64,000 bases of DNA from a bacterium (GCA_043798715.1 JAZDOK010000095.1:6284-70283), one strand, 5' to 3'; shown: positions 32,212 to 58,962, counted from the stretch's first letter. A program made the numbers and translations. Notes: generated by a model not told the origin, from the letters alone.

Positions 32212-33336
32212 ATGGCGCACGCCTATACTCCCGGCCTTCGCATTTCGGAGAACAGCCTTTTTAAAAAAGAACGCCGCCTTCCCCTCAAGGGCGAAGTGCT
32301 GGTTTCCTCCGGCGATCATGTCGCCTGGGATACCGTCGTGGCCAGGACGCACCTTCCCGGCAGCGCGGAACTCGTAAATATCGCTAACAAGCTGGGGGTG
32401 GACCCGGAAGAGGTCCCATCACGCATGCTGAAAGAAAAAGGAGCGGCGGTGCAAAAAGGCGAGGAGCTGGCCCGCTCGCGGGGCCTCTTCGGTCTTTTTT
32501 CCTCCTCCGTCGCCTCTCCGGCCTCCGGTACGATTGAGTCCATATCCACGCTGACCGGACAGGTGATCATCCGCCTGCCCTCCGTCCCGGTGGAGGTCCT
32601 GGCCTACGTGGACGGCGTCGTCGAGCGGGTGCTTCCGGATGAGGGCGTGGTGCTTCGCTCCTTCGGCGCCTTTATCCAGGGCATCTTCGGGATCGGCGGC
32701 GAGAGGAGCGGAGAGCTTCTCATAGCGGTCCCCGACCCGGGAGCGCTTCTGGATGCCGCGAGGATTCTCCCCTCCCACCGCGGGAAAGTTCTGGTGGGAG
32801 GCTCCCGGGTCACGCGTGAGGCCGTTCAGGCCGCCATCCAGGCCGGGGTGTGCGGCATCATCTCCGGCGGAATAGACGACCTGGATCTGAAAGCTCTTCT
32901 GGGATACGATATGGGCGTGGCGGTGACCGGCTCCGAAAAAATCGGCCTGACCCTCATCATAACGGAGGGCTTCGGCGAAATCCGCATGGCGGAACGGACC
33001 TTCTCCCTCCTGAAAAAATATGAAGGTCGGCGAGCCTCCATCAACGGGGCCACGCAGATTCGGGCCGGAGTCATCCGCCCCGAGGTTCTCATCTCTTCTC
33101 CGGATGCAGCCGGGCTTTCCGGGGAGGCAAATGAAGATGCCGGCGGCATTGCCGTCGGAAGCCCGGTCCGCATCATCCGCGAACCATGGTTCGGAATACT
33201 GGCGAAGGTTTCAGCCCTTCCCTCCGAGCTTCAGCAGATAACGACCGGGGCCCGGGTGCGGGTTCTGGAGGTTGAGCTTCCCGATGGAAGACGCCTCACC
33301 CTGCCCCGCGCTAACATCGAGAGGATTGAAGGATGA
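32212..33336 (+). CDS. Conserved protein with barrel-sandwich hybrid-like N-terminus and C-terminal KOW-like segment
   Basis: GEVLV..GD.V, V.KGEELA..ASP.SGTIE; ATG 1 nt after the glmL-like stop. Confidence 0.7.
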   Translation: MAHAYTPGLRISENSLFKKERRLPLKGEVLVSSGDHVAWDTVVARTHLPGSAELVNIANKLGVDPEEVPSRMLKEKGAAVQKGEELARSRGLFGLFSSSVASPASGTIESISTLTGQVIIRLPSVPVEVLAYVDGVVERVLPDEGVVLRSFGAFIQGIFGIGGERSGELLIAVPDPGALLDAARILPSHRGKVLVGGSRVTREAVQAAIQAGVCGIISGGIDDLDLKALLGYDMGVAVTGSEKIGLTLIITEGFGEIRMAERTFSLLKKYEGRRASINGATQIRAGVIRPEVLISSPDAAGLSGEANEDAGGIAVGSPVRIIREPWFGILAKVSALPSELQQITTGARVRVLEVELPDGRRLTLPRANIERIEG

Positions 33337-34562
33337 TACGCCTGAGCGCCCCCCTCATTTACTCCCTGGAGATCACGGCGGCCTGCGACTCTCTTTGTCC
33401 AGGCTGCGGAAACGTCTTTGAGCGAACTGACAAGGAGGAACTCTCCCTTGGGCAATGGGAAACCGTCATCGGAAAAATACGCCCCTTCGCCGGAGAAGTG
33501 CGGGTCACGGGAGGCGAGCCGACGCTCCACCCTAAATTTTTCGAGATTCTGACTCTACTTGAGGAGGCCGCCCTCCCCTTCCATGTTTTCACCAACGGAC
33601 GCTGGCAAAATACTGAGGAACTTGTGTCGCGTCTTAAAGGATTCCGCCGCCTGGGATCGGTTCTCCTCTCCCTTCACGGCGCCAGATGGGAGACCCACAA
33701 CGTATTTTCCGTAAACACCACCCCCGAAATCTTCGAGCGCATCAAGGGAAATATTTCGGCTCTCAAGCAGGCCGGAATCCCGGTCAATACCAACACGGTC
33801 ATGGGGGCCTTCAACCTTCAGGAACTGGAAGAGATCTCCACTTTATCCCATGCTCTGGGAGCTGATAACGCCGCCTTTTCCCGATATATCGGGCCGCCCT
33901 CGGCGGCGCTGGGTTTCAGCGATGAGGCGCTTAAAAGCGCGCTGGGCCGCCTGGAGAACCTGCAAAAAAGAGGCCTTCCGGTCATTCTTGGAAACTGTAT
34001 CCCCAACTGCTTTTATCCCTCGAATGCCTCCGGCTGCCTGGCCGGAATCTCCTTCTGTACGATCGATCCCTTCGGAAATCTCAGGCCCTGCAACCACGCT
34101 CCGGGCTGCTACGGCAATCTTCTGAAGGAGAACATCCGGAAAATCTGGAACGGTCCGCAGATGCAGGCTTGGGCTGAACATCTGCCGGAAGAGTGCGAAG
34201 CCTGCGTATTAATATCAATTTGCCCCGGCGGCTGCCGGGCGGCCCGGGAATTGCTTTCCGCCGCCAAGGATCCCCTGGTCACCGGCGCCATAACGGCCTC
34301 AGAAAGGGGCCCCGAAAAGCCCCATCAGATCACCCTCGATGAAAGCCTCCGTCCCGTTCCCCACTACACCATGCGCCGGGAGCCCTTCGGCCTGGCCCTT
34401 ATCTCCGGTAATAGTTTTCTTCCCGTTGACGCCGGTGCCAAACAAATTCTTAAAAAAATTGATGGGAAAACACCCTTGCGGGAATTCGAAAAAATGTTCG
34501 GAGAAGAAGGCCTCGTCTTCATCTGCCGCCTGGCCCAGAAAGGATTCGTCGAGCTGCGTTAA
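33333..34562 (+). CDS. Radical SAM/SPASM enzyme with C-terminal PqqD/RRE-like domain
   Basis: CDSLCPGC, TGGEP, SPASM Cys set (CLAG..C.IDP.G..RPC..CEAC...CPGGC). Confidence 0.85.
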   Translation: MIRLSAPLIYSLEITAACDSLCPGCGNVFERTDKEELSLGQWETVIGKIRPFAGEVRVTGGEPTLHPKFFEILTLLEEAALPFHVFTNGRWQNTEELVSRLKGFRRLGSVLLSLHGARWETHNVFSVNTTPEIFERIKGNISALKQAGIPVNTNTVMGAFNLQELEEISTLSHALGADNAAFSRYIGPPSAALGFSDEALKSALGRLENLQKRGLPVILGNCIPNCFYPSNASGCLAGISFCTIDPFGNLRPCNHAPGCYGNLLKENIRKIWNGPQMQAWAEHLPEECEACVLISICPGGCRAARELLSAAKDPLVTGAITASERGPEKPHQITLDESLRPVPHYTMRREPFGLALISGNSFLPVDAGAKQILKKIDGKTPLREFEKMFGEEGLVFICRLAQKGFVELR

Positions 34563-34564
34563 AG

Positions 34565-34628
34565 GTTGAACGGTGCGGGGCAGCGGCGCGAGCGACAGCC
34601 AGCGTCCGCCTGCAGCCGCTGGTTATGC
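34565..34628 (-). mobile_element. attC site
   Basis: Minus strand GCATAAC-cagcggcTGCAGGCGGAC...CGCGCCGCTGC...GTTCAAC, 64 bp imperfect palindrome overlapping the cassette stop codon. Confidence 0.75.
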
Positions 34629-35396
34629 GTGTGACATATACCAATTAATATCATCTATTTTCATCCCCAAGCAGGATGCCAAAGGAAATAATATACTTCT
34701 GGTCTCTTTAATTGCTGCATCCACTTCTCCTATTGATGGACGATATGCAAGTTTATGAACAACATTGTTTCTTAATTCACATATTTTTGTATTTTTGAGA
34801 TTGATGAGTAGTTCTGATAGATGTGCATCTTGTATGTTTCCAATCATGATGTCGGAAGGTGTAGTTGTTAATGAATTCAAGTCTTTTATTATTTTTTCTG
34901 CATCATCAAGGGATTTTGTAGGCTGATTAATTAATAATCGATTTAAGAAAATGTTTCGAAGTTTTACGAAAGGATAAGTCTTAATTTTCTCGTAGAGCTG
35001 TTTTGATAATTCATTCATGTGATTGAGGCTGTCTTTTCCTTTTTTATGTTCAATGCTGAATGGTTTGTATAATAATTCGACTCGAAAATATAAACTAAAG
35101 AAAACCTCAAATGCTTGAGCTAAGTTCAATATGCAGTAAGAATATCGTTTTTCTTGTTTGAGATCACAGCAATCAAACACTAGCATTTGAAAGGCAGGAT
35201 TTATTGAATCGCCATTAATGTTAAATTCTTTGCCACAAATATCATTCAGGCATTTTACTTTCATGAATCCAATTGCTTCTGTTGTCTTAAGATCAGTAAT
35301 CCGATTATAAATATTTTTATAGTCGCAGTCGGGGCACCAAGCGATAAAATTTTCATAGCTCGTTTCTTTCTTTTTTGCATAAAGAAGTTTGCTCAT
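34623..35396 (-). CDS. Cassette-encoded protein with Zn-ribbon-like Cys pairs and a HEPN-like RxxxxH motif
   Basis: CPDC...C-x4-C at the N-terminus; RNNVVH near the C-terminus; AT-rich. Confidence 0.7.
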   Translation of the reverse strand: MSKLLYAKKKETSYENFIAWCPDCDYKNIYNRITDLKTTEAIGFMKVKCLNDICGKEFNINGDSINPAFQMLVFDCCDLKQEKRYSYCILNLAQAFEVFFSLYFRVELLYKPFSIEHKKGKDSLNHMNELSKQLYEKIKTYPFVKLRNIFLNRLLINQPTKSLDDAEKIIKDLNSLTTTPSDIMIGNIQDAHLSELLINLKNTKICELRNNVVHKLAYRPSIGEVDAAIKETRSILFPLASCLGMKIDDINWYMSHA

Positions 35397-35420
35397 AGTT
35401 CACTCATAATGTAGACGCAT

Positions 35421-35696
35421 AATGGCGGAATTGAGTGGCTACCGCAGACAGTACGTAGTTCGAAGCTAATGTCGTACGCCGTACGCCCAGAATTCCTCGA
35501 ATTATTCTCCTGAACATTTTCACTCCTTAAATTTTCACTATAACATCTATTTTATGCCTGTCAAGGGAAAGGGCAAAAAACAGGCACTTCTCTTCCTGCC
35601 CGCTCAATTGCCAGGGCAGAGCCTTCGGTGGTGAATTACCGGACCGCCGTGATGATTTCCCCCGTTTAAAAATTGTCAACAATGACGATGCGACCC
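35421..35696 (-). repeat. Promoter-bearing non-coding module, copy 1
   Basis: Colinear with 37484-37735; TTGACA(35564-35559)-16-TATAGT(35542-35537) on the minus strand. Confidence 0.85.
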
Positions 35697-35841
35697 TGTT
35701 ATCGACGCGACCCCGTTACCACATGACGTTCGCCTCCCGCAACACCTTTTCAATCTCAGCATCCGCGGTCAATAAACGTCCAGAAAACGCCAAGTAATTC
35801 GAACCGCGCGGTTGCTTATCAGAGTGCAAGCCGTTGTCCGG

Positions 35842-36927
35842 TCATAGCTTGCGTCCAAGAATATCATGGATTATGTGGTAGCTCAATTGTGTCGCGCGGC
35901 TCTTAGGCCCCAAGTATCGCTTCATATCCAAGAAGATGTTGTCGAGGTTAGCCAAGTCAGAATCAGTGTAAATCAATACGAAGATCCCATATTTCCGAAA
36001 GAAGTTTTTGTGCTTCCGCATTTCACGTTCAAAATTGTCTTGGGCCATCTTGTTAATTTCGACCTGTGTGAGCTCCTTCACCTTGGAGAGGTGGCCATGG
36101 GTGGACCATGGCGACAATTCGAATCCTATCTTGGTCAGCTCAAATGGGTCAATGACAGTAAAGTCGAGACGGTATCGATGAGATGCGGACAAACCCTCAT
36201 AGCGGAATTCTGGAACTAGAAGGGGAACACGGTTGGGATCTGGAGTTGAAAGCACATACTCGCGATAGGTGCTTGCAAGCGCATACTCATACTTTGATCC
36301 GCTATTTCTTACTATTACATTCAGGAAGAAGTTAAGATACTCCTCTGGTCCATTAAACATTATTTTTTCGTCGCGGCCAGGAATGACCAATCCAGTCTCA
36401 ACAACATGGCCAATGGACCAATAAAGGGGACCGAAGTGACGAATCTCACTCATGTCATTCTCCCATTGACTTGTACTACGAATAAACCGGGGCGTAACAA
36501 GAAGCCCATAGTTAGCGTTATTCTGTCCGATCCACAACGCTGCATCCTCAATGCTTGGGCGCTTCTTCGAGAGAGCTTCCAAGTTTCTTAAATAAGTACG
36601 CTTTAGAAAAATGAAGAGATAATCTTGAAGCTTTGGATATCTCCGTAGCAGTTCGAGGTTTTGTGTGTGAGCTCTGACTGGAGCTGACACCTCTGCTTTC
36701 TCTAATAAGCCTTCTAGATACAGGGCTACGAAGTGTTCGGGAGAATAAATTACCTCATTCTTTATGTCTATGTAGTCAGCAAACTTGCCACCGTATAAAC
36801 CGTTCAATGAGTGTTCGGAACGTATACCCGTTTCGGCAAGAACATCTGGCAGCAAAATCTTAAGCTGAGTGGAAAGATCTGCAATGACTTTGTTCCGTGC
36901 CGTTTTCTCAGGGTCTCGCTTTGCCAT
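35842..36927 (-). CDS. Cassette-encoded protein with C-terminal PD-(D/E)xK/Vsr-like nuclease motif
   Basis: PEFRY..YRLDFTVIDP..KIGFELSPWSTH; preceded by GTTCGGT and followed by a truncated attC (ACCGGAC..TTGCAC). Confidence 0.7.
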   Translation of the reverse strand: MAKRDPEKTARNKVIADLSTQLKILLPDVLAETGIRSEHSLNGLYGGKFADYIDIKNEVIYSPEHFVALYLEGLLEKAEVSAPVRAHTQNLELLRRYPKLQDYLFIFLKRTYLRNLEALSKKRPSIEDAALWIGQNNANYGLLVTPRFIRSTSQWENDMSEIRHFGPLYWSIGHVVETGLVIPGRDEKIMFNGPEEYLNFFLNVIVRNSGSKYEYALASTYREYVLSTPDPNRVPLLVPEFRYEGLSASHRYRLDFTVIDPFELTKIGFELSPWSTHGHLSKVKELTQVEINKMAQDNFEREMRKHKNFFRKYGIFVLIYTDSDLANLDNIFLDMKRYLGPKSRATQLSYHIIHDILGRKL

Positions 36928-36947
36928 TCATTCCACACCTTCTTGTG

Positions 36948-37010
36948 ACCGAACGCCAGAGGTCAGCAATGCGGGCATTAGTCTACATTCCCTGGACCGA
37001 TTTATTCGGC
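36948..37010 (-). mobile_element. attC site
   Basis: Minus strand GCCGAAT-aaatcg-GTCCAG...GCTGAC-ctctggc-GTTCGGT, 63 bp. Confidence 0.7.
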
Positions 37011-37015
37011 CTGAA

Positions 37016-37459
37016 TCATCCAAGGTCGGACGCAGCTTGTGCAAAGGCGAGTATCCTCCTCAGATGCGGCTCAGGATGCCAGCCATAATCTCGGACGGAA
37101 TCGATAGGCTTCTGGGTCTGAGTATTCTGCGCAATCAGTCCCATACTCATGTCGATGCGGTCAAGCAAGCGATCAACTTCCGCCGCTGGATCATCGTGGT
37201 CAGGCCCATGCCATACCCAAAATTGGCTCTTGTCACCTTCATATTCGTCCCAAGCCTTCTTGATGAAGTCGAAAACCTGATCATCCGTCACGTATCCCTT
37301 TAAGTGAAGCCATGCTGCTAAGGATGGGGAGTGGGATATTTGTTCGTGCGCTCCCGGGTCAAGCTCTCGGATGCGCCTCTTTGCTGTCATGAGGCGGTCA
37401 TGTGCATCGATCAGAAATTCGATATCCTTTAGAAGCTTAGTTGCTACTGATTCATTCAT
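37016..37459 (-). CDS. Cassette-encoded hypothetical protein
   Basis: 147-aa ORF with AAGGAG SD, between module copy 2 and an attC. Confidence 0.65.
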   Translation of the reverse strand: MNESVATKLLKDIEFLIDAHDRLMTAKRRIRELDPGAHEQISHSPSLAAWLHLKGYVTDDQVFDFIKKAWDEYEGDKSQFWVWHGPDHDDPAAEVDRLLDRIDMSMGLIAQNTQTQKPIDSVRDYGWHPEPHLRRILAFAQAASDLG

Positions 37460-37483
37460 TTTTGTGCACTCCTTTTGCTGTCG

Positions 37484-37735
37484 AATGGCGGAATTGAGCG
37501 ACGACCGCAGACGGCGCGTAGTTCGAAGCTAATAGCATATGCCGTACGCCCAGAATTCCTCGAATTATTCCCCTAAACATTGTCACTCTTTCAATTTTTA
37601 CTATAACATCTATTCCATGCCTGTCAATCTCTTCTCCTCTACCCAATTTACAGGGCAGAGCCATCGGTGATGAATTATCGGATCACCGTGATTATTTCCC
37701 CGTTTAAAAATTATCAACAATGAAGATGCAGCCCC
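37484..37735 (-). repeat. Promoter-bearing non-coding module, copy 2
   Basis: Colinear with 35421-35696; TTGACA(37627-37622)-16-TATAGT(37605-37600). Confidence 0.85.
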
Positions 37736-37742
37736 GACCACG

Positions 37743-39194
37743 TTACGCATGTTGTTGGACTGAGCCCTTTGTCACTTTGGTGTGGTCAGAGATTACCTCG
37801 AAACCTCCATGCGGCCCTGGGTCCATTAGGGATGCAAAGTGGAGTGCCGCAGTCAGCCGTGTCTGTCGGTCATTCTTCTTGTGACTGATAATATGCCCAC
37901 CCTTGATTCTGGCAAATACATCATTGCCGTTATCAAAGATAAGCGCATCCCTCATCCCAGCTTTAATAGCTAACTCCTTTGCGTCTCGTATGGTAATCCC
38001 TGATCGCCCGCTGAGACCGCATATGCTGAGGTTGGCCACACGGCCGTCTTCGAAGATGCCCACAATATGGTGAGGGTAGATGGCCGGAAGCAACCACACG
38101 CTGACCTCGTGGCGGTCCATGTCGACGAAGAAGTGGCCGGGAGCAGATACGCCCGCTCGCGATTCCTCTGACACATAGTCCGTCGCCAGAAAGTCATCTG
38201 AGAGTTCGTCGGCACTGAACTTGAGTGTGTGGTTCTGTACTCCACCAAACTCAGCCCATAGATCAGTCTCAGAGATCTGGCATACGTTGCACATAGTCTC
38301 CAACCATTCCTGGGTCATAGCGAGTTCCATCGGCAAAGTGACAGGTTCGTCACGTGTTGCATAAACGAAATTCCTTTTCTCGCGTATCTCGTCAAAACCG
38401 AAGTAGAACTCAATCCGACCAATCGCGTCCGCCTTAATCCGGGAAATCTTCGCGATGCGACTGACAAGAGACTTCTGTAGTTTCGGTAGCCGCCATACGT
38501 GCCTGAAGTCGCTAACGTTCCGGGCGGTCATTTCAAGGGATACTTTCCGCCCGTCGATTACCAACGGATAGCCGCTGACAGCCCATCTTACTTTGTCCTC
38601 ATACTTTGGCGAGGCATCACTCGTGGCCTTCACTGGCTCGTCGAAATACGTCTGCTTGTCCACCTTTTGGCATCCCCCTAGTTCATTGAACAGGAGGAGT
38701 TCTACACCGACACGCCCCGAGTGTTCAGTGTCTTGTGCATACTCCACGAGGCACGCGTAGGGAGGGGGATGATCGGGTCTTTCGCCAACCACCATGTATG
38801 GTGCCCGATCGACATAGGCAAGGGCTCTGAGATTCTGCAGTACGTTGCCAAGACCGGTTGAAAGCTCAATTGGGACCCGTCTGTGACGTCCATGCTTGAG
38901 GTGTTCCTCCGTCGCAGCATCTGCTCCAAAGACGGCCTCATGTGTCTCGACGCTCCATTTGTAGCCATGGAGTTCCTCAGGGTCGGACAGCAGTCGTGCG
39001 GCGTCGTTTCGGAAGCGGCCAAAGGGAATTCCGTAACTGCGCTCAATCAATGTCAATGGGTAGTTACGCTGAATCGAAATGCCGATCTTTATTCGCTCCG
39101 GATCCGCAATTGCTGCGACGATGGGCATTGTGTCTTCTGGAAGGTATGTGCTGACGTGCTGTTTGGCAAGTTCTAGCAGTGTCTTAGCGTCCAT
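37743..39194 (-). CDS. Cassette-encoded protein with divergent phosphodiester glycosidase (NAGPA-like) domain
   Basis: AVSGYPLVIDG and YPHHIVG...SGITI.DAKELA..AG.RDALIFDNG resemble NAGPA motifs; start ATG 39194 after GGAGGGGAG. Confidence 0.55.
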   Translation of the reverse strand: MDAKTLLELAKQHVSTYLPEDTMPIVAAIADPERIKIGISIQRNYPLTLIERSYGIPFGRFRNDAARLLSDPEELHGYKWSVETHEAVFGADAATEEHLKHGRHRRVPIELSTGLGNVLQNLRALAYVDRAPYMVVGERPDHPPPYACLVEYAQDTEHSGRVGVELLLFNELGGCQKVDKQTYFDEPVKATSDASPKYEDKVRWAVSGYPLVIDGRKVSLEMTARNVSDFRHVWRLPKLQKSLVSRIAKISRIKADAIGRIEFYFGFDEIREKRNFVYATRDEPVTLPMELAMTQEWLETMCNVCQISETDLWAEFGGVQNHTLKFSADELSDDFLATDYVSEESRAGVSAPGHFFVDMDRHEVSVWLLPAIYPHHIVGIFEDGRVANLSICGLSGRSGITIRDAKELAIKAGMRDALIFDNGNDVFARIKGGHIISHKKNDRQTRLTAALHFASLMDPGPHGGFEVISDHTKVTKGSVQQHA

Positions 39195-39241
39195 GTGCTG
39201 CTCTCCCCTCCTGCTATTGTCTTGTGGAATTGCTCCGATCC

Positions 39242-39378
39242 AACGATAAAATTGAGCGGCGACCGCAGACAGCGGCATTTTGCGAACGCTTGCGTTCTGG
39301 CATTCGCGCCGGCAAGGCGGCAGCCCCGCCCCCGTTTGTCGCTTACCTAAGTATAGAGGAAAGTCAGGCCATAGTCAA
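39242..39378 (-). promoter_or_regulatory. Third, divergent promoter + cassette-junction module
   Basis: TTGACT-17-TATACT (39378-39350); shares GTCTGCGGTCGCCGCTCAATT with copies 1 and 2; ends in G/TTGGAT. Confidence 0.65.
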
Positions 39379-39579
39379 GGGATCGGCTTACCGAAAAATA
39401 CTTAACAAAAGCTAATCTATACAGGATAAACATGCTGTTTTTGATACTTGATTATGACGCCCTGCAGAACTCCATCGAACTTGCCGCGTGAAGTTCTTTC
39501 GAGTGAAACTCGTAAACGCTAAAAATTGCTGAAAATGTCAGGGAATGTCAAAAACAAGACACCATGATTACCTGATTCG

Positions 39580-41016
39580 TCAAGTCATTTTCTTTGCCAA
39601 TTCTTGACAGACTGTAACAAATAGATCCATGTCGGCACGGGTAAGCCATACACAAGCATCGACACGCATAGGGCATGGGGTTGGAGCCGGCTCCCCGGTA
39701 GCAGGGTTTCTATTTGGTATGGAATGGAGTGGAAAAAAGTGTGCTTCCGGATCCGGTGGGCGGGTAAGTCCGGTCGGACCCAGCCCTCCGGCACCGATAC
39801 GAATACGGTGCTCTTCAAAAATGCGCTCTTGGAATTTCATCCCCAGTGTACCGTCCCGACGGAGTGATTCAGTGGGGAAAGGGTTAAAGGCGATAATCCC
39901 CGATTTTAACTCGGGGTCACGAGCAGGCTGTAATAGAGCCTGCTCGCCGAAAGTCCGGACAATCGTTCTTCGAGTATAATCAGCTAAAGCCAGGATATAG
40001 TCCTGAATTCGCTTTCGCCCGACAGCTTCCCATAGTTCACATGCCTCTCCCAGTGCACGCCAGTCAGCAGACTCAGGAAAACCATAGACACTCAATGCAG
40101 CGCCAATATCAAACCCGGAAGAGCGGGAACCGTCAGTTGGAGCGTCAAGGGCACCGCTCCGCAGCAAATAAAAAGGTGGAGGATTATTGGGATTGGCTTT
40201 GTTGGGCCGGTTACGCACATATAATACTCCGGTTCCGCCCGGACCGCATTGCCACTTGTGACCTGAAATACCCCAGAAATCTATCCCTAATTCGTTAAGT
40301 TGCGGGTCAAACTGCCCCCCGTAATGGGCTCCATCAACAATGGTAATAATACCGTATTCCTGAGCGAGCTTTGCGATACGGCGGGCGGGGAAAAGCATGC
40401 CCGAGGGCTGACAGGGGCAGGAAAAAAATATAGCCTTCGTTTTGCCCGGTTTGATACTGCGGCGTACAGATTCCACCACTTCCTCTGCGGTTGCATCGCG
40501 AGCCATGGGCACAGCAAATTGACGGATGCGTATGTTGAAACGCCCGGCTACACGCAATATGGTCGCGACGCAATTGGGATATTCGAGCGTAGAGGTGAGC
40601 AGTTCGTCCCCTTGCCGCCAGTCGATTCCCCAGAGAATTTGAGTTATTGCGTCAGTCGTATTACGGGCGATGGCGATCTCATCCAGATCGGCACCATAGC
40701 AGCGCGCTATTTTTTCACGGGTCTTGTTCGACGGCTCCAGATACACGGGAAAAGGGTCTTTGGCAATCTGATCTAGTCCCTCCTTATAGTGCTGTATGAT
40801 CGGTTTTGGCATGGAGCCTTTCTGTCCAATAGCGTAATAGGGAGGGTCTTTATCCAGCGTAAAGGTTTTCGAAAAGGAGTGGAAAAAGGGCTCCTCGGCT
40901 TCAAGGTAGGCATCGAAACCGTGTCTCGCCGGATCGGGAGGTGGGGAGGAAGAAGAGCTCGACACCTCACTGGCAGATCGCTGTTTTTCCGTGAAATCGT
41001 CTTTTTCGTGTTCCAT
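39580..41016 (-). CDS. Class V PLP aminotransferase (isopenicillin-N epimerase-like)
   Basis: RNTTDA, VDGAH, SGHKWQCGPGGTG. Confidence 0.85.
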   Translation of the reverse strand: MEHEKDDFTEKQRSASEVSSSSSSPPPDPARHGFDAYLEAEEPFFHSFSKTFTLDKDPPYYAIGQKGSMPKPIIQHYKEGLDQIAKDPFPVYLEPSNKTREKIARCYGADLDEIAIARNTTDAITQILWGIDWRQGDELLTSTLEYPNCVATILRVAGRFNIRIRQFAVPMARDATAEEVVESVRRSIKPGKTKAIFFSCPCQPSGMLFPARRIAKLAQEYGIITIVDGAHYGGQFDPQLNELGIDFWGISGHKWQCGPGGTGVLYVRNRPNKANPNNPPPFYLLRSGALDAPTDGSRSSGFDIGAALSVYGFPESADWRALGEACELWEAVGRKRIQDYILALADYTRRTIVRTFGEQALLQPARDPELKSGIIAFNPFPTESLRRDGTLGMKFQERIFEEHRIRIGAGGLGPTGLTRPPDPEAHFFPLHSIPNRNPATGEPAPTPCPMRVDACVWLTRADMDLFVTVCQELAKKMT

Positions 41017-45853: not shown

Positions 45854-46996
45854 TCATTTGCCAGTTTGTTTCTTAAACAGTTCCGGGGCCATGACCTTGA
45901 CAAGGGCGAAGTTAATATTGTCGGCTGCTCCTTCAACAGAGCTGGGATACCTGTTGATCAGCGTGATACTAGTGGATTTATAGGCCGGGAAGTAGTACAT
46001 CGATGAGTTGTAGCCCGGTACCTCTCCGGAGTGACCAAGCGCAATTCCCGCGTTCATCACGCCCAGCCCGTACGATTCGGTATTCGGTGCGGAGAACTTC
46101 ACCTGCTCGGTGTGCATCTGCCTGCTGAGGAGCTTGCCGGTAGCGAGCGCCTGCGCCCATAACTTCAAATCGTCCAGGTTGCTTATTATCCCTCCTGCCG
46201 TCCAGAAAGGCGTAGGGGAGCAGATGCTTAAGTCTTCAAGTTTGCCGGTGCCATTCTGTTCGCCCTCGGCCGGTACGTAGCCGTGCATGTACGGGCCGGG
46301 CAGGTCCGGGGTCATGGGGAAGGAGGTGTTCTTAAGGCCGAGCCGGTCTATTATCCTCGTGGTGATTTCGACGCCCGCCGTCCTGCCGGTCACCTTCTCT
46401 ATAATCATCCCCAGCAGGATATAGTTGGTATTGCAGTACATATACTTCTGTCCCGGTGGAAAGACCGCCGGGTGCGCGATGGCGATGTCCACCATCCGCT
46501 GCGGCGCCCATGCGGCCCCGGGACTTTTTTTGAACTCGTCCCAGAAGGCCCCGTCGTCAGTGTAGTTAAAGAGACCGGAGGTCATGTTAAGAAGCTGCCT
46601 GATGGTGATTCCGTCCGCGCCCGGCACCTGCGGCTCGTACTTGCTCAGCCTGTCGTCCAGCGAAAGCTTCTTCTCGTCGACGAGCTGGAGGACGACCGTG
46701 GCGGTGAAAGTCTTGGTGAGGCTCCCGATGCGCAGTTTGTCTGTTATCTTCGGGGCGGTACCGGTACTTATGTCGCCCTTGCCCGCTCCCAGAACCCAGG
46801 TGCCCTTGCCGGGAAACCACATCCCCACGATGGCCCCGGGCACCTTGTACTTCGCCATCTGAGAGTCGAGGGTCTTCCGAAGGGTGTCCCACTTACTGAG
46901 GGTGCGCGCCGAGGCGTACGAAACGCACGCGAACACGCACAGGCACAGCAGAACTGCGATAACAGGGTATCTGATATCATGTCTTATTTCTTTCAT
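45854..46996 (-). CDS. Secreted serine hydrolase, beta-lactamase/D-Ala-D-Ala carboxypeptidase family
   Basis: SLTK, YCN, HSG motifs; signal peptide. Confidence 0.87.
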   Translation of the reverse strand: MKEIRHDIRYPVIAVLLCLCVFACVSYASARTLSKWDTLRKTLDSQMAKYKVPGAIVGMWFPGKGTWVLGAGKGDISTGTAPKITDKLRIGSLTKTFTATVVLQLVDEKKLSLDDRLSKYEPQVPGADGITIRQLLNMTSGLFNYTDDGAFWDEFKKSPGAAWAPQRMVDIAIAHPAVFPPGQKYMYCNTNYILLGMIIEKVTGRTAGVEITTRIIDRLGLKNTSFPMTPDLPGPYMHGYVPAEGEQNGTGKLEDLSICSPTPFWTAGGIISNLDDLKLWAQALATGKLLSRQMHTEQVKFSAPNTESYGLGVMNAGIALGHSGEVPGYNSSMYYFPAYKSTSITLINRYPSSVEGAADNINFALVKVMAPELFKKQTGK

Positions 46997-57443: not shown

Positions 57444-57453
57444 CTGAGAGCTT

Positions 57454-57480
57454 TTTTTTATTCCTCCTCGCCCTTGACCT
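57454..57480 (+). repeat. 27-bp direct repeat, left copy
   Basis: TTTTTTATTCCTCCTCGCCCTTGACCT identical to 59349-59375. Confidence 0.9.
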
Positions 57481-57534
57481 TGGCACCCTTGACCTCGGTT
57501 GTTGACAAAAGGCACACAAAATGGTATCATTCGA

Positions 57535-57813
57535 ATGAAGATGAAATTATTTGAATGGGATAATGATAAAAATAAAACACTTAAAAATGAACGAGGGATT
57601 TCGTTTGAAGAGGTGGTGTTTTATATCGCCAATGATTATATCCTGGACATTGTGCCTCATCCCAATCAAGATAAATATCCCGGTCAACAAATGTTCATAG
57701 TGAATATAGATAACTATGCCTATTTGGTGCCTTATATAGAAAAAGAAGAAACTGTTTTTCTTAAAACGATTATTCCTAGTCGCAAAGCAACAAAGAAATA
57801 TTTAAAAGGATGA
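57535..57813 (+). CDS. BrnT-family toxin
   Basis: FEWD.DKN..L..ERGISFEE...LKTIIPSRKAT; TTGACA-17-TATCAT promoter at 57502-57530. Confidence 0.85.
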   Translation: MKMKLFEWDNDKNKTLKNERGISFEEVVFYIANDYILDIVPHPNQDKYPGQQMFIVNIDNYAYLVPYIEKEETVFLKTIIPSRKATKKYLKG

Positions 57814-58091
57814 TGAATATGAAATTAAATAAGGAAGAAAATGAAATTCTTAAAGCCTATGAAAAAGGGGATTTCTCTTCTATTCCTAATGTTAAACGAG
57901 AGGCTGCAAGGTATCGGGAATATGCCAAAACTACCTTGCAGAAGAACAAACGCATCAATATTCGCATTTCGGAACGCGATCTTGTTCACATTCAAAGAAA
58001 AGCTGTAGAGGAAGGCCTGCCTTATCAAACCTTAATATCCAGTATCTTACATAGATACATTGGCGGAAATTTTATTGAGAAACCCTCGTGA
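57810..58091 (+). CDS. BrnA-like antitoxin
   Basis: K.KRINIR...KA.EEGLPYQTLISSILHRY; ATGA overlap with the toxin. Confidence 0.85.
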   Translation: MMNMKLNKEENEILKAYEKGDFSSIPNVKREAARYREYAKTTLQKNKRINIRISERDLVHIQRKAVEEGLPYQTLISSILHRYIGGNFIEKPS

Positions 58092-58093
58092 AG

Positions 58094-58136
58094 CTCTAAC
58101 AACTCATTCGAGCGGACAAAGGATGGATCAGCTCAA
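58094..58136 (+). mobile_element. Degenerate attC remnant
   Basis: CTCTAAC-aactca-TTCGAGCGGAC...GCTCAA; the R' GTT end is absent. Confidence 0.5.
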
Positions 58137-58162
58137 ACGCGGAATCTACAATAAAGTACTAG

Positions 58163-58557: not shown

Positions 58558-58962
58558 ATGATGGGGATAAGGATCAACTACCGGAAAATCGCGTTCGATG
58601 CCTACGGCCCTCTGTGTGCCCACTGCGGATTCGGCATTTCCGCTGTGCTGGAGGTTGCCCACATTGACGGTAATCGCCAGAACAATGACCCGAAGAATTT
58701 GATCGTGCTGTGCCCGAACTGCCACAAGATGCACGACCTTGACCTGATCTCAACCGAGACAATCATCCAGATGCGAGACCGACCGAAGATCGTGAAATGG
58801 GCCAAACGGATGAAGGACGCCGGAAAGAAGGCGGCACTCACGCGAAAGCACAGTGCGGCCGGTCGCAAGGCCGCCGAGACAAGAAAGAAGAACCGGAGTC
58901 CCAACAACATACCAGACGGTATTCGTCAACCCGCGGACGATTTACCGAAACCGTCAGTGTGA
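58558..58962 (+). CDS. HNH endonuclease (gene cassette)
   Basis: CAHC...HIDGNRQNN...N..LCPNCH; basic KAA.TRK repeats. Confidence 0.85.
   Translation: MMGIRINYRKIAFDAYGPLCAHCGFGISAVLEVAHIDGNRQNNDPKNLIVLCPNCHKMHDLDLISTETIIQMRDRPKIVKWAKRMKDAGKKAALTRKHSAAGRKAAETRKKNRSPNNIPDGIRQPADDLPKPSV

Follow-up and report, generated by a model that had tools for sequence, protein, structure and literature searches.

A probable decayed integron cassette cluster without an integrase, with diverged copies of a promoter module that ends in an attC-type site

Introduction

Clusters of attC sites without an integron integrase (CALIN) and single attC sites of the same kind (SALIN) have been described in the part of the literature source that was available (10.1101/2022.09.11.507474). 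In the superintegrons of the Vibrionaceae, cassettes without a gene are known as well, and most of those tested were active as promoters on the sense strand according to the accessible portion of that report (10.1101/2023.11.21.568050). The present analysis concerns a 4.8-kb island within 64,000 nucleotides of bacterial DNA (GCA_043798715.1, JAZDOK010000095.1:6284-70283). This whole 64-kb stretch is referred to as the window, and positions are counted from its first letter. The island carries four genes on the minus strand (g1 to g4) and repeated promoter modules that hold no open reading frame (ORF). An original prediction, made from the sequence of the window alone, had read the module as a portable unit of a cassette promoter (Pc) and an attI-like site that had been multiplied. 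The results presented here point instead to a decayed cassette cluster that lacks an integrase, i.e., a CALIN, and the module is probably a cassette that carries a promoter but no ORF and that occurs in several diverged copies.

Results

Repeated promoter modules and their junctions

The modules and the promoter at the head of the island are listed below. A slash within a short sequence marks the crossover point.

35421-35696, minus strand: ModA, ORF-less promoter module; predicted promoter at 35564-35537; 3' end CCA/TT.
37484-37734, minus strand: ModB, the same ORF-less promoter module in a second copy; predicted promoter at 37627-37600; 3' end CCA/TT.
39237-39356, minus strand: ModC, 5'-truncated attC of family F (described below) ending TCG/TTGGAT; promoter DNA replaces the R'' box and most of the L'' box.
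39350-39378, minus strand: head promoter, TTGACT, 17 nt, TATACT; 10/12 consensus; adjoins the truncated attC.

ModA and ModB were colinear, with an identity of 78.6% over 276 aligned columns, and the first 144 nt were 88% identical without a gap. In the gene-strand alignment, the similarity among ModA, ModB and ModC ended at CCA/TT, CCA/TT and TCG/TT, respectively, and the sequences beyond these points were unrelated. Five copies of the terminal motif were found on three contigs of the 3.06-Mb genome. The five copies ended in the same register, G/TT or A/TT, and each stood before a different gene. The following copies outside the window were absent from the original prediction.

Contig C92, 43869-44098: full module copy, preceding a BrnT/BrnA-like gene pair.
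Contig C92, near 45960-46090: half module copy (C92b), left half only with the -10 box kept, preceding a Fic gene.
Contig C13, 826-911: copy of the ModC type.

Of the sigma-70-like sites in 34400-39700, the three with the highest scores fell in the ModA, ModB and ModC stretches, and all three were oriented toward the genes. The promoters of ModB and ModA both matched the consensus at 11/12 positions and were TG-extended. The same region held 12 sigma-70-like sites, compared with 7.3 +/- 2.3 in shuffled sequences. A piece of approximately 52 nt carrying the head promoter was 82.7% identical to C92:41307-41358, where it heads the island on that contig. Colinear long copies, a break of similarity at N/TT (A/TT in two copies of the window), a breakpoint fixed across copies and a promoter facing the cassette in each module had all been anticipated, and each was recovered here. 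ModC had been counted as a third copy of the module. It does have the terminal motif in common with the long modules (a 25-nt end at 39250-39274, 92%), but it is not a module copy; it is a truncated attC joined to a different promoter piece, and it was 75.6% identical to C13:826-911 over 86 nt.

The ORFs inside the module copies (51 aa and 70 aa) were placed differently, and none of them was conserved. Two shorter frames were considered and rejected. The first, on the minus strand, has 38-43 codons and a preceding ribosome-binding site in both ModA and ModB; in the C92 copy a stop ends it after 7 codons, and a 7-nt indel separates the copies in this region (by eye). The second, a plus-strand frame of 15 codons across the motif, was without a ribosome-binding site, and its conservation was accounted for by the attC (by eye). 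An inverted repeat of 7 bp, whose 10-nt loop is conserved, was located upstream of the module promoter at 35610-35645 and 37650-37685. One compensatory change, G-C to A-T, was seen between ModA and ModB (by eye), and the repeat may be an operator or a hairpin.

A scored attC site and the absence of an integrase

The attC sites were called with home-built covariance models (R1, R2 and R3) and not with the model of IntegronFinder. R1 was trained on 12 class 1 integron attCs cut from seven plasmid records. In its consensus structure R'' was paired with R' and L'' with L', a single base being bulged out, and a held-out orfD site that served as the control scored 39.9 bits. Both strands of the whole window were searched with R1 with the filters off, and the following site was at the top of the six matches.

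36948-37010, minus strand: attC3, attC in the g3-g2 spacer; its end, G/TTCGGTCA, lies 24 nt ahead of the g2 start.

The score of attC3 was 23.7 bits (E 8.7e-4), the match covered the full model length on the correct strand, and all 14 model pairs of R1 were fitted. Elsewhere in the island R1 gave nothing above 6 bits. R2, a local model built from three sites, gave matches at noise level at the module ends of the island (4.8 bits for ModC and 5.7 bits for ModA). The GTT columns were misaligned in a MAFFT alignment of class 1 and local sites (A5), and no model was built from it.

No integron integrase gene (IntI) was found in the window, as had been predicted, and none was found in the whole genome, which is 97% complete; the best match to TIGR02249 reached 73.8 bits against a cut-off of 265. 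The search of 401 genomes of the phylum gave 0 IntI matches at 1e-40. Because the built-in control of that search was silent, a control was run on five genomes holding attC arrays, and two of them gave matches of 435 and 404 bits. The tallies over phylum genomes, for IntI as well as for the module DNA, include the unpublished genome G370, on which no claim rests.

The module end and attC family F

Metagenome contigs were scanned with the 21-nt terminal motif of the modules. At least 120 stretches were found, and 80 loci with 86 matches were read. The motif occurred in two or three copies on five contigs, with a spacing of 0.66-1.16 kb in one contig (two overlapping loci). Approximately 105 nt upstream of the motif were conserved too, which defined an attC family of approximately 130 nt, named family F. 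At its 5' end this family has an R''-type box, then 5 nt of spacer, then an L'' box that complements the L' box within the motif, and the 3' end consists of the L' box, a spacer of 5-6 nt and GTT or ATT. Thirty-five full-length members were collected, and 33 of them were aligned; the other two, at 150 nt and 80 nt, were set aside for their unusual length. R1, which has no training data in common with family F, matched 23 of the 33 at E<=0.1 and found additional short attCs on several of the family F contigs. Among 160 outside loci, the similarity to the modules found by BLAST was confined to the last 45-55 nt. Judged by these alignments, the terminal motif of the module corresponds to the last part of the variable region together with the L' box, the spacer and the R' box of a family F attC.

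R3, the family F model, was trained only on the 33 metagenome sequences. It scored ModC at 58.5 bits (E 5e-14) and the C13 copy at 35.9 bits. Lower scores were obtained for the ends of ModB (37479-37568; 18.8 bits, E 0.0048), ModA (35416-35514; 15.4 bits, E 0.04) and C92a (9.9 bits, E 1.3). In ModA and ModB, R3 placed an L''-type box approximately 60 nt upstream of L', which suggests that these ends are whole attCs with a shortened middle. The flanks were also evaluated separately with a position weight matrix of 22 positions outside the motif, by which every position of the genome was scored (6.1 million). The value for ModB was 21.7 bits and was reached by one position only, i.e., ModB itself. 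C92a had 19.1 bits, a value reached by nine positions, and its core failed the motif pattern; the 13.2 bits of ModA were reached by 146 positions. The immediate flanks of ModC gave -5.8 bits, which is no match, and the support for ModC comes from its long upstream stretch. With attC3 and ModC, the island contains two scored attC sites at a distance of 2.2 kb, and the usual distance threshold for a CALIN is 4 kb. At least two attC sites thus stand close together with no integrase nearby, as is characteristic of a CALIN.

The crossover box was classified with a rough regular expression in 69 distinct members of family F. It was ATT in 22, GTT in 34 and unclear in 13. A/TT is a trait of family F and is not particular to this locus. 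Paired with an R'' box that ends in AAC, ATT would form a G.T wobble (bottom strand) or a C.A mismatch (top strand), and the wobble may explain why ATT is tolerated.

An integrase gene adjoining family F was searched for with tblastn, and no complete IntI was detected; the search gave only a XerA-type gene at locus L148 and a fragment at locus L124. The XerA-type tyrosine recombinase gene (L148, 468-1313) starts 22 nt after a family F attC, i.e., in a cassette position, and scored 233 bits with NF040815 and 198 bits with TIGR02249, which is below the cut-off of 265. On L124, another family F contig, only the N-terminal part of an IntI was present (591-1112, 73.9 bits).

Genes of the island and their flanking complementarity

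The genes of the island and the two genes that flank it are given below.

33333-34562, plus strand: radical-SAM/SPASM gene, flank of the island.
34623-35396, minus strand: g1, orphan gene of 257 aa; GC content 0.32; Cys-rich stretch at the N-terminus.
35842-36927, minus strand: g2, 361 aa; member of a large, widely scattered family.
37016-37459, minus strand: g3, orphan gene of 147 aa; no family found (Pfam, NCBIfam, PADLOC).
37743-39194, minus strand: g4, 483 aa; weak lead to the phosphodiester glycosidase (NAGPA) family.
39580-41016, minus strand: class V aminotransferase gene, other flank of the island.

For g2, 947 relatives were found at E<=0.001, and the genomic context was scanned at 80 genome loci kept from 97 confirmed ones. 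R1 matched attC sites around the g2 relatives at six of the 80 loci, and at five of the six the attC started no more than 25 nt from the gene end. At those five loci, the bases after the upstream G/TT complemented the R'' box of the cassette itself, exactly in four and with one mismatch in the fifth. At such loci of other genomes the g2 relatives are cassette genes in attC arrays, and g2 in the window has the same anatomy with one mismatch.

The original prediction had assigned a cassette anatomy to all four genes because the bases 5' of each gene complement the R'' box at its own 3' end. The logic of this argument is validated, since the loci of g2 relatives among attC sites show the same complementarity. 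Within the island it held for two genes. The 8-mer that follows the ModA junction and the one at the g1 stop are exact reverse complements of each other (8/8, P=0.0013), and g2 had 7/8 (P=0.031), but the values for g3 (5/8, P=0.93) and g4 (6/8, P=0.37) were at chance level. The combined P (Fisher) over the four tests was 0.004. The more general claim of a set of integron-type cassettes without an integrase is upheld by the scored sites attC3 and ModC, by the g2 relatives in attC arrays and by the lack of IntI.

None of the four genes had a family above the cut-off in Pfam or NCBIfam, and PADLOC returned a single row at noise level (REase_II for g1, 12.7 bits, E 0.0082). Some sources label the g2 family as topoisomerase, and such labels are atlas leads only. 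The match of g4 to Pfam PF09992 reached 20.3 bits, under the cut-off of 25, with an atlas feature score of 0.95; the start of g4 was set at an internal ATG preceded by an AGGAGG-type site. Among the 160 outside loci, no relatives of the g1, g3 and g4 proteins were seen, and only BrnT relatives occurred (5 loci). An Rfam scan of 33000-41000 gave one sub-threshold snoRNA match, which was unrelated. The tails of the two flanking genes converge on the island. The GC contents of g1 to g4 were 0.32, 0.45, 0.51 and 0.53, and those of the flanks were approximately 0.58-0.63 on the radical-SAM side (30-34 kb) and 0.47-0.53 on the other side. The spread among the four genes is compatible with separate foreign origins.

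Degenerate sites

Three further stretches of the island resemble attC sites or their remains.

34565-34630, minus strand: attC-like site at the array end (attC1); R''-like box over the g1 stop codon; GTT-type box 2 nt from the radical-SAM stop.
35697-35841, minus strand: spacer after g2; R''-like box at the g2 stop, relic of approximately 100 nt with a short ORF tail, and conserved left site ending G/TTGAC.
37700-37770, minus strand: left site of ModB; overlaps the g4 stop; short attC-like stretch ending G/TTGATAA; homologous to the left sites of ModA and C92.

The left site beside the long copies is a conserved block of approximately 35-45 nt that also stands alone on contig C92, where it scored 12.2 bits (E 1.4) with R2. 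In four copies, the module begins directly after a conserved short site ending G/TT. The spacer after g2 may be composed of a relic and a small attC. An inner 7-bp stem was seen by eye in 34565-34630. Six proposed sites were folded on both strands (12 folds), and none was better than shuffled sequences (z -0.81 to +0.74); the left site of ModB had z = +0.33 and -0.81 on its two strands. The bottom strands of 13 true attCs gave z from -1.3 to -7.4. The attC at the module end, if it once worked, is probably inactive now.

Further copies and islets in the same genome

The island on contig C92 (locus L020, 5300-11450) begins with the head promoter piece, which is followed by a gene of 260 aa whose attC-like site scored 18.6 bits, by a gene of 530 aa and by the full module. 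BrnT/BrnA, the lone left site, a lipoprotein gene, the half module and Fic come next, and a direct repeat of approximately 32 nt surrounds the segment from the lipoprotein gene to Fic. On contig C84 (locus L029, 6143-6875), an insert of 333 bp, made of a small gene and an attC-like site (21.7 bits), lies within a direct duplication of approximately 195 bp. This duplication spans the 3' ends of two convergent host genes, both of which stay whole, and it would not be the product of an integrase. On contig C93 (locus L028, 6560-7960), a Uma2-like gene (by eye) and a HigB/HigA-like pair are located between two sites that have a 22-nt start in common; the second is an attC of 32.8-32.9 bits that overlaps the stop codon. 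Taken together, R1 and R2 gave attC-like sites behind accessory genes on C93, C84, C107, C7 and C92; those contributed by R2 were on C107 (39.7 bits), C7 and C92 (two sites). The attC-like sites of C93 and C84 resemble each other, and an nhmmer profile made from these two found no further significant member in the genome.

A second cassette-like islet was seen in the window itself at 57450-58160. It comprises a promoter (TTGACA-17-TATCAT), a BrnT/BrnA-like pair (approximately 57536-57813 and 57810-58091) and an attC-like site at 58094-58151 directly after the stop codon (R3, 16.3 bits, E 0.022). The next gene, at 58558-58962, encodes an HNH endonuclease.

Discussion

Proposed assembly and points against it

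Read along the minus strand, the island would open with the head promoter fused to a 5'-truncated family F attC. Then would come g4 and its short attC-like end, ModB, g3, whose attC is recognisable, g2 together with a relic and decayed attC remains, ModA, and lastly g1 and its degenerate attC. ModA, ModB and the C92 copy are diverged copies of one ORF-less unit of approximately 250 bp, in which a near-consensus sigma-70 promoter points down the array. Each unit would end in a shortened family F attC, with the next gene beginning at its R' crossover, G/TT or A/TT, and the break of similarity at N/TT would be the normal junction of neighbouring cassettes. The assembly of the cassettes may be the work of an integron integrase, either within a donor or in trans; this is proposed because no integrase is present now. 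Transcription from the promoter units would run through their own attC into the next cassette, as in the gene-less promoter cassettes of Vibrio, so that g1 and g3 would be expressed independently of the head promoter. By analogy, cassettes may escape position effects through promoters within the array. The cassette nature of the module, the firing of its promoters and the route by which the array entered the genome are inferences.

Several results weigh against this assembly. A gene-less cassette would reach from the R' box of the attC before it to an attC of its own; for the module, the downstream boundary is supported by R3 and by the flank-only test, and the 5' boundary is putative. The R3 scores of ModA and ModB are partly circular, in that family F was fished with the motif from ModA, ModB and ModC; only the flank-only test and the ModC and C13 matches are free of this circularity. 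The folds of the module ends were no better than those of shuffled sequences (z between +0.26 and +0.74; ModB end, -0.35), and the R3 alignments gave the module-end attC no clear R'' AAC box (by eye). The site at 34565-34630 was scored by none of the three attC models, and its fold had z -0.6 and -0.2. A truncated attC had been predicted beside each long copy; the conserved block is present there, but R1, R2 and R3 all left both blocks of the window unscored, and the similarity to the lone C92 copy extends 5 nt beyond the canonical G/TT. The module body (promoter, inverted repeat and left site) was found in no outside DNA, i.e., the 160 outside loci, 60 relatives, 400 phylum genomes, metagenome and genome collections, and plasmids. 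In detail, the exact pattern of the long-module leader had 0 matches in the metagenome and genome collections, the 60 relatives and 400 phylum genomes gave only matches of 22-38 nt that were coding, mostly GC-rich and judged to be chance, and 72,556 plasmid records gave no match. Within these searches the module body is confined to this genome, and it has therefore never been seen in an integron with an integrase.

Alternative origins of the module

It is rather unlikely, but deserves the most attention among the alternatives, that the module is resident promoter or leader DNA to which pieces of a foreign array, each starting inside an attC, were joined by ordinary or illegitimate recombination. 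The module and the attC remnant would later have undergone segmental duplication, and the downstream genes would have been swapped by homologous recombination through the remnant. ModC and the C13 copy are plainly 5'-truncated attCs joined to unrelated promoter DNA, the head promoter piece occurs on C92 without any attC, and the C92b copy retains only the left half of the module, all of which agree with such an origin. So does the restriction of the module body to this genome. Moreover, other islets lie within duplicated host sequence (approximately 195 bp on C84 and 32 bp on C92) that is not expected of an integrase; recombination routes other than integrase are therefore indicated. However, the R3-aligned L''-type box approximately 60 nt upstream of L' in ModA and ModB suggests that the attC is whole, though shortened, and not a fragment, and in four copies the module starts directly after the conserved short G/TT-ending site.

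A portable Pc with an attI-like site, as in the original prediction, would make the module a double-stranded landing site that was multiplied into independent points of entry and expression. The common register of the five genome copies, each before a different gene, and the strong predicted promoter in each long copy would be accounted for. As far as the consulted part of one source goes, simple sites in a genome can receive cassettes from an integrase, and nearby promoters can express them there (10.1101/2022.09.11.507474). This origin is nevertheless quite improbable. Homology links the conserved end to attC family F, whose members have their own R''/L'' boxes and sit inside arrays, and on this point the predicted unit is not supported. 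No integrase gene is located beside any copy or anywhere in the genome, and a repeated cassette would yield the same break of similarity without a special site. Furthermore, three copies have A at the position for which a conserved G is reported (GWT) in that part of the source (10.1101/2022.09.11.507474).

It is very improbable that the shortened family F site is still a live, double-stranded recombination target, used by a recombinase supplied in trans or by a tyrosine recombinase other than IntI. The candidate type of recombinase would be that of the XerA-like gene of L148. If this were true, a genome without an integrase would keep several promoter-equipped entry points for cassettes.

Some insertion sequences and group II introns target attC sites, and the long copies do adjoin short attC-like blocks, but it is scarcely credible that the module is an element with such a target, be it the terminus of an insertion sequence or a miniature transposable element, since the module ends have no terminal inverted repeats (repeat search and by eye), only five copies, two of them partial, exist in 3.06 Mb, the plasmid records gave no match and Rfam nothing relevant in 33000-41000, and the 3' end is accounted for by attC family F.

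Significance

If the module is an ORF-less promoter cassette, as we consider probable, the putative novelty of an attI becomes something testable and mostly of a known kind, i.e., a gene-less promoter cassette with an ordinary attC, as described in Vibrio. The island shows that integron cassettes, some of them likely promoter cassettes, occur in a lineage with 0 IntI in 401 sampled genomes. A by-product of the analysis is a widespread attC family of approximately 130 nt in environmental metagenomes, about one third of which has ATT at the crossover. Provided that the promoters are active, the idea of the gene-less promoter cassette would reach beyond Vibrio, and such cassettes could persist in several copies after the loss of the integrase.

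Comparison with known systems

The platform of attI and Pc resembles the module in that a promoter lies upstream of an N/TT junction at which different cassettes are joined. An attI stands beside intI, once per integron, whereas the module is multicopy and not beside intI (no intI was found, and the five motif copies are spread over three contigs). Beyond the core, attI is unrelated in sequence to attC. The module end, in contrast, is homologous to the family F attC, with its L''/L' boxes, over approximately 45-55 nt (BLAST), also outside the motif.

Insertion of cassettes at attG sites is alike in that cassettes are found outside the platform, a promoter is nearby and the requirement at the junction is minimal, as described in the part of the source that was available (10.1101/2022.09.11.507474). 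It differs in the reported GWT with its conserved G, compared with ATT in three copies, and the recipient here is derived from an attC (same part of 10.1101/2022.09.11.507474). In common with CALIN and SALIN, the locus is small and has cassettes with attC, no intI nearby or in the genome, and isolated attC cassettes scattered in the same genome. The differences are that the sites were called by home-built models, that several of them are truncated or decayed, and that the host phylum has 0/401 IntI.

From the gene-less promoter cassettes of the Vibrionaceae, as far as the available portion of that report describes them, the module differs in its shortened and probably inactive attC, in a promoter predicted from the consensus, in its putative 5' boundary, in its three diverged paralogous copies, and in its host, which is outside the Vibrionaceae and has no integrase. 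The module is alike in being a short ORF-less array unit with a predicted sense-strand promoter directed toward the next cassette, and in ending at the attC crossover.

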